Below are positions 23,729 to 28,412 of a DNA stretch of 64,000 bases, piece by piece. The first letter of the stretch is position 1; the number at the start of each line of letters is the position of its first letter. The stretch is taken from the NCBI GenBank assembly GCA_963698525.1, contig CAVORE010000008.1, forward strand, positions 33,122-97,121, given 5' to 3'. The translations under genes and the position numbers were made by a program. Origin of the DNA: an uncultured Ignavibacteriaceae bacterium (GTDB lineage Bacteria; Bacteroidota; Ignavibacteria; Ignavibacteriales; Ignavibacteriaceae). Below the pieces are notes generated by a model. That model did no database searches and had not been told where the DNA came from. It saw only the letters and a program-made list of their open reading frames with translations.

Positions 23729-25261
23729 GTGTCTAAAAAATTTACTTGTTTTGTAGTTGGTGAAGATTCACTTCTTATTAAATGCTGTGAAACTCTCCTG
23801 GATAAGTCGCACGATATATTTGGAATAATCTCATCAAGTCAATCAATAAAAAAATGGGCATCAGAAAATAACATAAAAGTTTATGAGTTAGACGCAAACC
23901 TTATTAGTGTATTATCTTCAAAACCTTTCGATTACCTTTTCAGTATTACAAATTTGTCTATCCTAAAAGATGAAGTTATTAATTCTCCTCGTAAAGCGGC
24001 AATAAACTTTCACGACGGACCGTTACCAAAATATGCAGGAATCAACGCAACATCCTGGGCATTGATGAATCGGGAAAAGAAATATGCAATTACGTGGCAT
24101 GAAATAACCAGTGAAATTGATAAGGGCGATATTTTAAAGCAGGTTCATTTGGTTATTGATGATGGAGAAATTGCACTTTCACTGAATGCAAAATGTTTTG
24201 AAGCAGGAGCTTCTGCTTTTGAAGAATTAGTTGAGGAACTAGCTAATGGAACTGTCCAGAGAATTAAACAGGATTTTTCAAAAAGATCATATTTCGGCAA
24301 ATTTAAAAGACCTGATTCTGCTGCAATTATTGATTGGAACAGTGATGCTGAAAGTATTTTGTCATTTGTTCATGCACTAAATTTTGGCAGGTATAGAAAT
24401 CCTCTTGGACTGCCGAAAATAAAAATTGGTGAAAAGTATTTTCTTATTCCGGAACTTGAAATTACTAATCCAAAATCAAAAGAGGCACCTGGAACAATTA
24501 CGGCAGCCAATGAAAAATACTTTGAGGTTTCAACAAAGACTAATTCTGTAAGATTTAGTAAAGTTCTTTCAATTGATGGTTTAGCAATTTCATTGGTGAA
24601 CCTGATCGAGCAATTTTCATTAAAATCAGGAACAAGATTAAATCAGGTTGACGGCGGATCCTCTAAAAGCATAACGGAATTCAATTCAGTTATTGCGAAT
24701 AAAGAAAATTATTGGATTAGAGAGCTAACAAATCTTGAAGCGATTAATTTTAATTATACAAAGCGAAATTCGAAAAGTGATCATTTAGCTGATCCAGCCG
24801 AAGAATATTTAAAGATTTCTAAAAAAGCTTTTAGCACATTTAAGATTGATGAGAACCAACTTCCAACACTTATCCTTTCTCTTTTTTCAATCTTCATTGG
24901 TCGCCACAGCGGAAAGAATAATTTTACTCTTGGATATTCTAATTCAGAATTACTGGAGAATCAGAAAAAGTTCGGAAACCTATTTGCAGAGATTGTTCCC
25001 GCTAATATTTATTTTAATCCTGAAGAGAGCCTTAATGATGCTGTAATTAAGTTAATTGAGGGATTTAATAAAATTGATAAGAATAAAACATTCATAAAAG
25101 ATGTTTTCCCACGTCATCCGGAATTATTACACTTTGTAAATGAAGGCGGAGAACCTGTTTATCCAGTTGCTGCTGTGATCATTAAAGATCAATCTGATTT
25201 TAAGCCTCAGCCAAGCAACGTATTGACTTTTGTCATTTCCTCAGATTGTAGTACCGATTAA
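23729..25261 (+). CDS. NRPS starter fragment: formyltransferase (F) domain + C-terminal lobe of a condensation-like domain (frame-broken from the next ORF)
   Basis: GTG start. INFHDGPLPKYAGINA (Fmt Asn/His motif), HEITSEIDKGDIL (catalytic Asp region) and an Fmt C-terminal subdomain (IDWNSDAESILSFVHAL). From about residue 320, ENYWIRELTNLEAINFNYTKR... is typical of the second half of C domains. There is no HHxxxDG. Confidence 0.75.
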   Translation: MSKKFTCFVVGEDSLLIKCCETLLDKSHDIFGIISSSQSIKKWASENNIKVYELDANLISVLSSKPFDYLFSITNLSILKDEVINSPRKAAINFHDGPLPKYAGINATSWALMNREKKYAITWHEITSEIDKGDILKQVHLVIDDGEIALSLNAKCFEAGASAFEELVEELANGTVQRIKQDFSKRSYFGKFKRPDSAAIIDWNSDAESILSFVHALNFGRYRNPLGLPKIKIGEKYFLIPELEITNPKSKEAPGTITAANEKYFEVSTKTNSVRFSKVLSIDGLAISLVNLIEQFSLKSGTRLNQVDGGSSKSITEFNSVIANKENYWIRELTNLEAINFNYTKRNSKSDHLADPAEEYLKISKKAFSTFKIDENQLPTLILSLFSIFIGRHSGKNNFTLGYSNSELLENQKKFGNLFAEIVPANIYFNPEESLNDAVIKLIEGFNKIDKNKTFIKDVFPRHPELLHFVNEGGEPVYPVAAVIIKDQSDFKPQPSNVLTFVISSDCSTD

Positions 25262-28200: not shown

Positions 28201-28412
28201 ATAACTTCTTTGATTTGGGTGGTCATTCATTATCAGCGGTTCAGATAACTGTAAAAATTCATCAGTCATACAACATAGATTTATCTTTGCAAACATTCTT
28301 TCAGTCCTCTACTCTTAAAGAACTTGCAAATGCAATTGATGAAAAATTACTTGAGCAGGCTTCCGGTGAGCATTTAGAACAACTTTTACGTGAAGTTGAA
28401 AATTCAAAATAA
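25230..28412 (+). CDS. NRPS A-T didomain; A domain (Gly-like code) interrupted by a luciferase-like monooxygenase
   Basis: [17 protein letters not shown] (A3), [13 protein letters not shown] (A4), then a 355-aa LLM insert, then HLQCTPSMA (A5), [39 protein letters not shown] (A8), LPEYMIP (A9), PNGKVDR (A10) and [13 protein letters not shown] (carrier Ser codon 28227-28229). Confidence 0.85.
   Translation: [1060 protein letters not shown]
26160..27230 (+). other. Luciferase-like (FMN/F420-type) monooxygenase domain inserted between A4 and A5 (approximate bounds)
   Basis: [63 protein letters not shown]...[13 protein letters not shown]... This is a TIM-barrel LLM signature of the natural-product LLM type. 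Confidence 0.75.

Follow-up and report, generated by a model that had tools for sequence, protein, structure and literature searches.

A formyltransferase fused to a monooxygenase-interrupted glycine module: a probable nonribosomal peptide starter module in a polysaccharide locus of an Ignavibacteriaceae bacterium

Glycine-specific adenylation (A) domains of nonribosomal peptide synthetases (NRPSs) which are interrupted by a monooxygenase (MOx) were so far known as chain terminators or from unstudied clusters. The terminators are MtaG and MelG of the myxothiazol and melithiazol pathways, terminal C-A-MOX-A-T-TE modules (condensation, adenylation, monooxygenase, thiolation and thioesterase domains) which carry the MOx between the core motifs a4 and a5 (PMC11411415, PMC10204066). 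Formylating loading modules are known from OzmO (oxazolomycin) and conglobatin, where F-A(Gly)-PCP modules (F, formylation domain; PCP, peptidyl carrier protein) make formylglycyl-S-PCP (PMC4979870). Here we describe a gene from an uncultured Ignavibacteriaceae bacterium which encodes, in this order, a formyltransferase (FT), a remnant of a condensation (C) domain, a glycine-type A domain with an embedded luciferase-like monooxygenase (LLM) and a PCP. It lies in a stretch of 64,000 nucleotides, called the window below (assembly GCA_963698525.1, contig CAVORE010000008.1, positions 33,122 to 97,121). We consider it probable that this gene, read as one after repair of a single-base frameshift, makes N-formyl-alpha-hydroxyglycyl-S-PCP as the starter of the assembly line encoded downstream.

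An earlier note, made from the letters of this DNA alone, had placed an LLM inside the A domain of open reading frame (ORF) 25230-28412, and the strings it quoted are present there. Profile comparison supports this assignment: TIGR04020 (MupA/Atu3671 natural-product LLM) matches ORF residues 313-660 over the whole profile (1-341 of 341, E 1.9e-151) with 504 bits, the cut-off being 244 bits, and Pfam Bac_luciferase matches residues 325-635. The TIGR04020 match corresponds to window positions 26166-27209, in agreement with the range given in the note. The E-values exclude chance for the domain matches. The closest solved relative of the insert is PuwE (PDB 6KET; 394 bits, full length, 51% identity over 339 residues), and this identity fixes its fold. 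Scores fall to about 88 bits for LuxA and other luciferase alpha chains and to about 47 bits for the F420-dependent Mer reductases, thus a better fit to a non-oxygenase TIM barrel, which would have spoken against the note, is not seen. The same is true for a loss of active-site residues, because the window protein, when aligned with 119 homologues, retains every one of the 107 LLM positions that are conserved at 95% or more, including those of the WTPERHF segment opposite the catalytic EHHF of LuxA. The insert is therefore a true oxygenase-type natural-product LLM. The studied members of TIGR04020 (MtaG/MelG, SolF and PuwE) have all been linked to the alpha-hydroxylation of carrier-bound thioesters (PMC11411415, PMC10204066, PMC11342130, PMC4219810); the PuwE monooxygenase is proposed to add the 2-hydroxyl of the 3-amino-2-hydroxy acyl chain of puwainaphycin (PMC4219810). 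Alpha-hydroxylation has also been proposed for the MOx-bearing crz-like clusters of Serratia and Pseudomonas (PMC11342130). As these clusters also have the MOx in a glycine domain, and SolF has its monooxygenase at a8/a9, MtaG and MelG are not the only precedent, as the note had assumed. The top NCBIfam match of solanimycin SolG was considered as a functional lead and dropped, as it is a generic NRPS match far below the cut-off and SolG is a serine module; of the solanimycin proteins it is SolF that is relevant here.

The A domain is otherwise complete, the LLM occupying one of its loops. AMP-binding is found at ORF residues 81-303 and resumes at about 670, extending with AMP-binding_C to 943 (Pfam). 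With the insert excised, the domain aligns end-to-end with GrsA-PheA (1AMU; residues 1-500 against 35-527, E 4.6e-116) and is also colinear with both A domains of LgrA, and all ten core motifs are readable in the translation. The insert follows FDISVLE...VVIYAEED (A4) and precedes THLQCTPS...NMYGPTE (A5). The placement between A4 and A5 proposed earlier is therefore correct, with A4 before and NMYGPTE behind the insert, but the string HLQCTPSMA, then taken for A5, belongs to the position-278 segment upstream of A5. Motif-anchored extraction of the Stachelhaus positions gave the code DILQMGMVWK. The 120 nearest homologues show DILQ[LM]GM[IV]WK with rare variants, and in a 2025 survey four Gly-activating MOX domains all carry DILQLGMIWK, Gly codes being variable at positions 299, 322 and 330 (PMC12283262). 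The code from the window is identical to DILQLGMIWK at eight of ten positions and differs at 299 and 330; we read it as a glycine code, in line with the Gly-type A domain of the note. The glycine module 2 of LgrA was uninformative as a code reference, because its pocket (FDISVAE, THINF) does not give the classical Gly code. The PCP (PP-binding, ORF residues 973-1036) has a serine which is invariant in the family alignment, and the protein ends about 25 residues behind it.

The formyltransferase, noticed earlier as a neighbour, is real and is fused to the starter across a one-nucleotide frameshift. The stop codon of ORF 23729-25261 overlaps ORF 25230-28412, which lies in the +1 frame. In the closest homologues (73-50% identity) a single protein of about 1540-1600 aa runs uninterrupted across the site at which the window is frameshifted; at this position the homologue P0002 has one continuous frame, ISSDLSRVKLVYD. 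A contig from ENA (L001; ERZ25039603, contig_73613), which aligns to window positions 23639-37345 with 99.4% identity over 13.7 kb and 13 indels, is a second assembly of essentially the same organism. In this contig the G of window position 25256 is missing, and ...CRTIKFVYN... is read in frame (in-frame stretch SSDCRTIKFVYN). L001 is error-rich, with every large gene fragmented, yet it reads through at the very site of the frameshift in the window. Removing the G gives a protein of 1560 aa which is colinear with the family in the homologue alignment and keeps 272 of 273 highly conserved columns, the single deviation being a conservative Ile for Val. Both ORFs are thus one gene with the order FT - C-lobe remnant - A(Gly)/LLM - PCP. 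Because the repaired protein deviates at only one conserved column and L001 is without the extra base, the break is an assembly error or a very recent mutation and not an old pseudogene. A programmed frameshift at 25256-25262 was ruled out, as the homologues are in frame, a slippery or Shine-Dalgarno-stop context is missing at the site and L001 does not have the base.

Both Fmt-like subdomains are present in the NRPS-fused FT (window 23729-24650), and the upstream ORF continues for about 230 residues beyond them. The catalytic residues Asn93, His95 and Asp131 are invariant among 12 diverse members of the family that were aligned. The best solved relatives are the formyltransferase domain of ArnA, Fmt and sugar N-formyltransferases (E about 1e-16 to 1e-13); the LgrA F domain gives a weak match (E about 1e-4 over about 115 residues). 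This distance suggests a formylating starter of independent origin. Behind the FT the Condensation profile is covered from about 190 to 456 (of 456) in the homologues P0028 and P0002 and from 396 to 456 in the window, and the HHxxxD motif is absent throughout the repaired 1560-aa protein. Because the C-terminal lobe alone is present and HHxxxDG is missing, the module has, as far as can be judged from its motifs, no functional C domain and should be unable to accept an upstream peptide. An N-terminal FT with the Asn-His-Asp triad, fused ahead of A-PCP and not followed by an active C domain, is the hallmark of a formylating initiation module. In every relative locus described FT-A(MOx)-PCP either opens the line or stands alone. 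All this points to an NRPS initiation module and not to a release module like MtaG, and it agrees with the starter context that the earlier reader had assumed.

This arrangement is common, not rare. The FT is present in 77 of the 120 nearest homologue clusters, so that FT-A(MOx)-PCP is the dominant architecture among the closest homologues. In a scan of one genome per GTDB species, relatives were found in at least 577 species genomes. In 78 of the best 80 loci the match to the query starts at about residue 1-10 and extends to about residue 1370 or beyond, and so comprises the full FT-to-PCP protein; the loci are spread over Chloroflexota, Alpha-, Beta- and Gammaproteobacteria, Cyanobacteria, Acidobacteriota, Planctomycetota, Gemmatimonadota, Myxococcota, Actinomycetota, Ignavibacteria and Rhodothermales. 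All ORFs lying up to 10 kb from the gene were clustered for 85 loci, one of them being the window. Here the short lines are most often paired with one polyketide synthase (PKS) of about 2140 aa with the domains KS-AT-KR-DH-ACP-TE (ketosynthase, acyltransferase, ketoreductase, dehydratase, acyl carrier protein, thioesterase), which adjoins the module in 52 of the 85 loci. A phosphopantetheinyl transferase (PPTase) is encoded in 32 of them. Such two-gene NRPS-PKS cassettes (e.g. L068 4751-11182, L033, L038 and L063, among L007-L086) occur in Proteobacteria, Planctomycetota, Gemmatimonadota, Chloroflexota and others, where they are usually accompanied by Wzx, Wzy, GT2 and GT4 genes. Other loci have longer lines. 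One of them (L002) encodes FT-A(MOx)-PCP, PPTase, a radical SAM (S-adenosylmethionine) protein, Hexapep-PCP, C-A(Ox)-PCP (Ox, oxidase) and C-PCP-TE, and an Ignavibacteria metagenome-assembled genome (L006) Wza, Wzz, PPTase, FT-A(MOx)-PCP, C-A(MOx)-PCP, a radical SAM protein, Hexapep-PCP and C-A-PCP-TE; in an Ignavibacteriales locus (L005) PPTase, FT-A(MOx)-PCP, C-A(MOx)-PCP and a PKS were found. On the other end of the scale are Calothrix NIES-2098 (L004; AP018172 297439-322052) and Aulosira (L009), in which FT-A(MOx)-PCP is the sole thiotemplate gene, with no C, KS or TE partner within 10 kb; it lies in an exopolysaccharide (EPS) locus with GT4s, Bac_transf and Wzz genes and is flanked there by PglD-like and DegT genes. 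Such a lone module without C, KS and TE implies release by a trans-acting transferase. Finally there are single-module enzymes of about 1815 aa with the architecture FT-A(MOx)-PCP-TE (P0020, P0066, P0098). The gene for P0098 is beside Wzy_C, Wzx and Polysacc_deac_1, and both P0098 and P0020, whose neighbourhoods were viewed, are encoded beside a FemAB-like Acetyltransf_6 gene. An asparagine-synthase-like gene is located near the single-module enzymes of both L087 (JGI 3300012207) and the P0020 contig.

The data show the identities of the domains, the insertion site, the glycine code, the frameshift, the position as starter and the comparative context. The chemistry which we infer for the module, i.e. 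formylation, hydroxylation, the fate of the carbinolamide and release, would run as follows. Judging from its code, the A domain would activate glycine and load its own PCP. The FT would then cap the glycyl amine with N10-formyl-tetrahydrofolate, giving N-formylglycyl-S-PCP; the loading modules of the OzmO/LgrA type and the conserved Asn-His-Asp triad argue for this step. By analogy with the TIGR04020 family, the FMNH2/O2-dependent LLM would hydroxylate the alpha-carbon of the thioester to N-formyl-alpha-hydroxyglycyl-S-PCP. A free alpha-hydroxy-alpha-amino thioester would, on chemical grounds, deaminate at once, thus N-acylation should precede hydroxylation. The oxidised starter would be passed to the heterocyclisation (Cy) module Cy-A(Cys)-Ox-PCP and from there to two Gly modules, to give formyl-(hydroxy)Gly-thiazole-Gly-Gly. 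Release would proceed without a TE, perhaps by transfer to an amino sugar, which is possible because the line lies in a polysaccharide locus and adjoins a PglD/NeuD-like acyltransferase-PCP. We favour that the N-formyl carbinolamide is kept at least until hand-over. In relatives a second in-line C-A(MOx)-PCP follows the FT module and cleavage would waste the product of module 1, the FT triad is invariant among the 12 diverse members, and natural alpha-hydroxyglycine residues persist, as in solanimycin B and spergualin (PMC10204066).

Several points weigh against this reading. The gene is frameshifted as assembled, and the assembly line may therefore be inactive in the source organism. ArnA, Fmt and sugar N-formyltransferases are closer relatives of the FT than the F domain of LgrA is, so that glycyl-S-PCP is a presumed acceptor. 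Neither a flavin reductase nor a PPTase nor a TE was detected in the 64-kb window. Alpha-hydroxylation by MtaG/MelG is itself a proposal (PMC11411415, PMC10204066). Finally, the N-formyl carbinolamide could collapse spontaneously.

In the latter case formamide would be lost from the N-formyl-alpha-hydroxyglycyl thioester and glyoxylyl-S-PCP would be left, the line would, after processing by Cy and Ox, lead to 2-formylthiazole-Gly-Gly, and the formyl group would be sacrificed after having served for activation or protection. The ArnA pathway is a precedent for transient formylation, and the ArnA formyltransferase is the closest solved relative of the FT; also, a polysaccharide deacetylase-family gene lies near one FT-A(MOx)-PCP-TE homologue. 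Collapse of the carbinolamide has been proposed for MtaG/MelG (PMC11411415, PMC10204066, PMC11342130). A glyoxylyl starter is the main alternative and a serious one; nevertheless we regard it as unlikely. It would be wasteful, since a strictly conserved FT would yield nothing but formamide, and the tandem lines with FT-A(MOx)-PCP and C-A(MOx)-PCP would be pointless if every hydroxylation cleaved the chain; moreover, solanimycin B and spergualin indicate that alpha-hydroxyglycine can survive. The oxidised or glyoxylyl-type starter, which the earlier note had put forward as one of two options, is the one which the evidence favours, and within it we prefer the retained N-formyl-alpha-hydroxyglycyl unit.

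A further explanation that we hold to be unlikely is that the frameshift is real and that the line, which is also without TE and PPTase, is a non-functional remnant in the source organism. The frameshift is found in an otherwise clean assembly, in which the downstream ORFs of 1443 and 2143 aa are intact. The missing TE had been noticed before, and indeed neither TE nor PPTase is detectable in the 64 kb, whereas in relatives a PPTase (L002, L005, L006) and partly also a TE (L002, L006) adjoin. Since a TE is present in close relatives, its absence is peculiar to the window. However, 272 of 273 conserved positions are intact, so that any inactivation must be very recent, and the extra base is absent from the near-identical L001. 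The cyanobacterial homologues are likewise without TE or C domain, and a PPTase may be encoded elsewhere in the genome.

It is improbable that the FT formylates a nucleotide-amino-sugar, like ArnA and WlaRD, while A(MOx)-PCP separately supplies a (hydroxy)glycyl or glyoxylyl unit to the same glycan. This would fit the greatest similarity of the FT, which is to ArnA and the sugar N-formyltransferases, and the occurrence of the family in polysaccharide loci with DegT aminotransferases. Yet an unprotected alpha-hydroxyglycyl thioester would be expected, on chemical grounds, to deaminate at once. The fusion order FT-Clobe-A-PCP is kept across the phyla sampled and resembles the F-A-PCP logic of OzmO and LgrA, where the PCP brings the substrate to the F domain (PMC4979870). 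Very improbable is the second option of the earlier note, a release module of the MtaG/MelG type acting out of gene order, by which a chain built downstream would be loaded onto the glycine of this module, hydroxylated and freed as C-terminal amide: insertion site and glycine code of the MOx agree with MtaG/MelG and the missing TE would be explained, but with its C-terminal lobe alone and without HHxxxDG the module should not be able to receive a peptide, its N-terminal FT is a mark of initiation, in relatives it is first (followed by modules starting with C or KS) or alone and the TE is elsewhere, and MtaG/MelG need their own TE to clear glyoxylate (PMC11411415, PMC11342130), which the window does not have.

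The features of the starter gene and of the line downstream are given in Table 1. Module 2 is, by its domains, predicted to form a thiazole, and the predicted backbone of the line is formyl-(hydroxy)Gly-thiazole-Gly-Gly. Both A domains of the last NRPS have glycine codes and are without MOx, so that the line has three glycine modules out of four. The radical SAM/SPASM gene is located between the starter module and the acyltransferase-PCP, and this pair is kept in the closest relatives L002 and L006. Fusions of a Hexapep acyltransferase (NeuD/PglD/VioB-type) with a PCP are frequent (659 hits at E<=1e-10), and a Hexapep-PCP-TE variant of about 590 aa occurs, e.g. in Geobacter. In the window the acyltransferase-PCP could serve as off-loading or sugar-acylating step.

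Table 1. Features of the starter gene and of the assembly line in the window.
Feature	Position	Strand	Basis and remarks
ORF 1, first frame of split gene: formyltransferase, then start of condensation C-lobe remnant	23729..25261	+	Pfam, NCBIfam
Formyl_trans_N	23885-24220	+	Pfam
Formyl_trans_C	24323-24565	+	Pfam
Condensation remnant, C-terminal lobe only, across frameshift	24686..25412	+	Pfam Condensation
ORF 2, second frame, 1060 aa: end of C remnant, then A(N-part)-LLM-A(C-part)-PCP	25230..28412	+	
Extra G splitting the normally fused gene	25256	+	Comparison with homologues and ENA contig L001
A domain, N-terminal part, motifs A1-A4	25470..26138	+	AMP-binding profile 1-251 of 384
Inserted LLM (MOx)	26166..27209	+	TIGR04020 full length; PuwE 6KET match
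A domain, C-terminal part, position 278 segment, motifs A5-A10	27264..28058	+	Second AMP-binding stretch and AMP-binding_C
PCP (GGHSL)	28146..28337	+	PP-binding, 62 bits
Small radical SAM/SPASM protein, 316 aa	28464..29414	+	Pfam; also in L002, L006; cluster c17
NeuD/PglD-like hexapeptide acyltransferase-PCP	29401..30471	+	TIGR03570, 133 bits, and PP-binding; kept in L002, L006
Module 2: Cy (DLLNFDAGS) - A (DLYNVSSIW-, Cys-like) with nitroreductase-type Ox insert - PCP	30581..34912	+	
Modules 3-4: C-A(Gly, DILQLGMIWK)-PCP-C-A(Gly, DILQLGMVWK)-PCP, no TE at end	34925..41356	+	

The line is flanked by glycan genes, namely Wzy_C, GT4s, a WbpB/E/D-like trio, Bac_transf and a UDP-GlcNAc 2-epimerase. 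This polysaccharide cluster is unusually rich in radical SAM enzymes: window positions 7833-18892 encode two B12-binding radical SAM enzymes together with three class-I methyltransferases, and further radical SAM genes are those for a SPASM protein (7833-8879) and a radical SAM protein (9597-10859). A 2-oxoacid:ferredoxin oxidoreductase pair (POR_N/TPP and POR gamma, 21008-23232) directly precedes the starter gene in the same orientation, separated by a gap of 500 bp; it is not conserved in the relatives. The window also encodes OmpA-TSP3 proteins and a protein with a sorting tail of the type IX secretion system, which indicates a member of the Bacteroidota/Ignavibacteria group.

The neighbourhoods of the relatives suggest a link to the decoration of polysaccharides. 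Counting Wzx, Wzy_C, Wzz, GT2, GT4, Bac_transf, DegT and PglD-like as recurrent polysaccharide families, 45 of the 85 loci have at least one of them and 22 at least three. It is possible, and we propose it tentatively, that a large class of very short (1-4 modules) NRPS or NRPS-PKS lines in polysaccharide loci of many bacterial phyla has FT-Clobe-A(Gly,MOx)-PCP as its signature starter, that these lines make a small acyl group derived from N-formyl-alpha-hydroxyglycine or glyoxylyl, and that a PglD/NeuD-like acyltransferase or a TE puts this acyl group on an amino sugar of a surface glycan. If this is true, these lines would be a thiotemplate route to glycan decoration and not to a free secondary metabolite, and the fact that they recur in polysaccharide loci suggests that thiotemplate enzymology and the modification of cell-surface glycans are linked in a way not recognised before. 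In the literature searched, in which subscription journals are thinly covered, also with regard to Atu3671 and to connections between NRPS, EPS, formyltransferase and LLM, we found no description of the FT-A(MOx)-PCP architecture. The formyl-capped starter version of the known MOx-interrupted glycine A domain is thus new as well as widespread, no characterised example having been found there. The MOx-glycine device is reused here at the start of an assembly line and fused to a formyltransferase, in hundreds of species. If the hydroxyl group is retained, the product would be a rare, reactive N-acyl carbinolamide building block, and if it collapses, an aldehyde (glyoxylyl) starter. Culturable carriers are Sphingomonas zeicaulis, Ramlibacter, Shimia, Devosia, Aureimonas and Calothrix NIES-2098.

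When compared with known systems, the module shares an N-terminal formyltransferase fused to an A-PCP initiation module with OzmO, conglobatin and LgrA module 1, and with OzmO and conglobatin also the glycine. In all of these the A domain lacks a monooxygenase. The FT of the window differs further in that it keeps both Fmt-like subdomains, has a C-lobe remnant of about 250 aa behind it and is a distant relative of the LgrA F domain. With the Ox domain of PuwE (6KET), which like other TIGR04020 domains belongs to a PKS/NRPS line and is proposed to act on a carrier-bound chain, the LLM shares 51% identity across the whole domain, but the PuwE domain is located between PKS and NRPS modules, outside any A domain, and acts on a long beta-amino fatty acyl chain. 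SolF from the solanimycin pathway, with the organization C-A(Gly)-FMO-PCP (FMO, flavin monooxygenase), is likewise a glycine module with an embedded flavin monooxygenase, and as an in-line, non-terminal module whose alpha-hydroxyglycine is kept in solanimycin B (PMC10204066) it is the best precedent for retention over cleavage. It differs in the position of the FMO (between a8 and a9, not a4/a5) and in its role, as it is an elongation module, has a normal C domain and lacks a formyltransferase. MtaG and MelG, for which a homologue with the architecture C-A(MOx)-PCP-TE (P0059, 51% identity) served as proxy, have in common with the window a glycine A domain split between a4/a5 by a TIGR04020-type LLM, their insertion site being that given in the publication (PMC10204066). 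The codes are nearly the same (DILQLGMIWK in the reported MOx-type Gly domains, DILQMGMVWK in the window), and in both cases the oxygenase would be expected to hydroxylate the alpha-carbon of a carrier-bound glycine. However, MtaG and MelG are last modules, in which a full C domain receives the chain, hydroxylation would free the terminal amide and the TE clears glyoxylate, whereas the module of the window stands first, has an FT and a catalytically dead C-lobe in place of the C domain and no TE, and would hand its product downstream.

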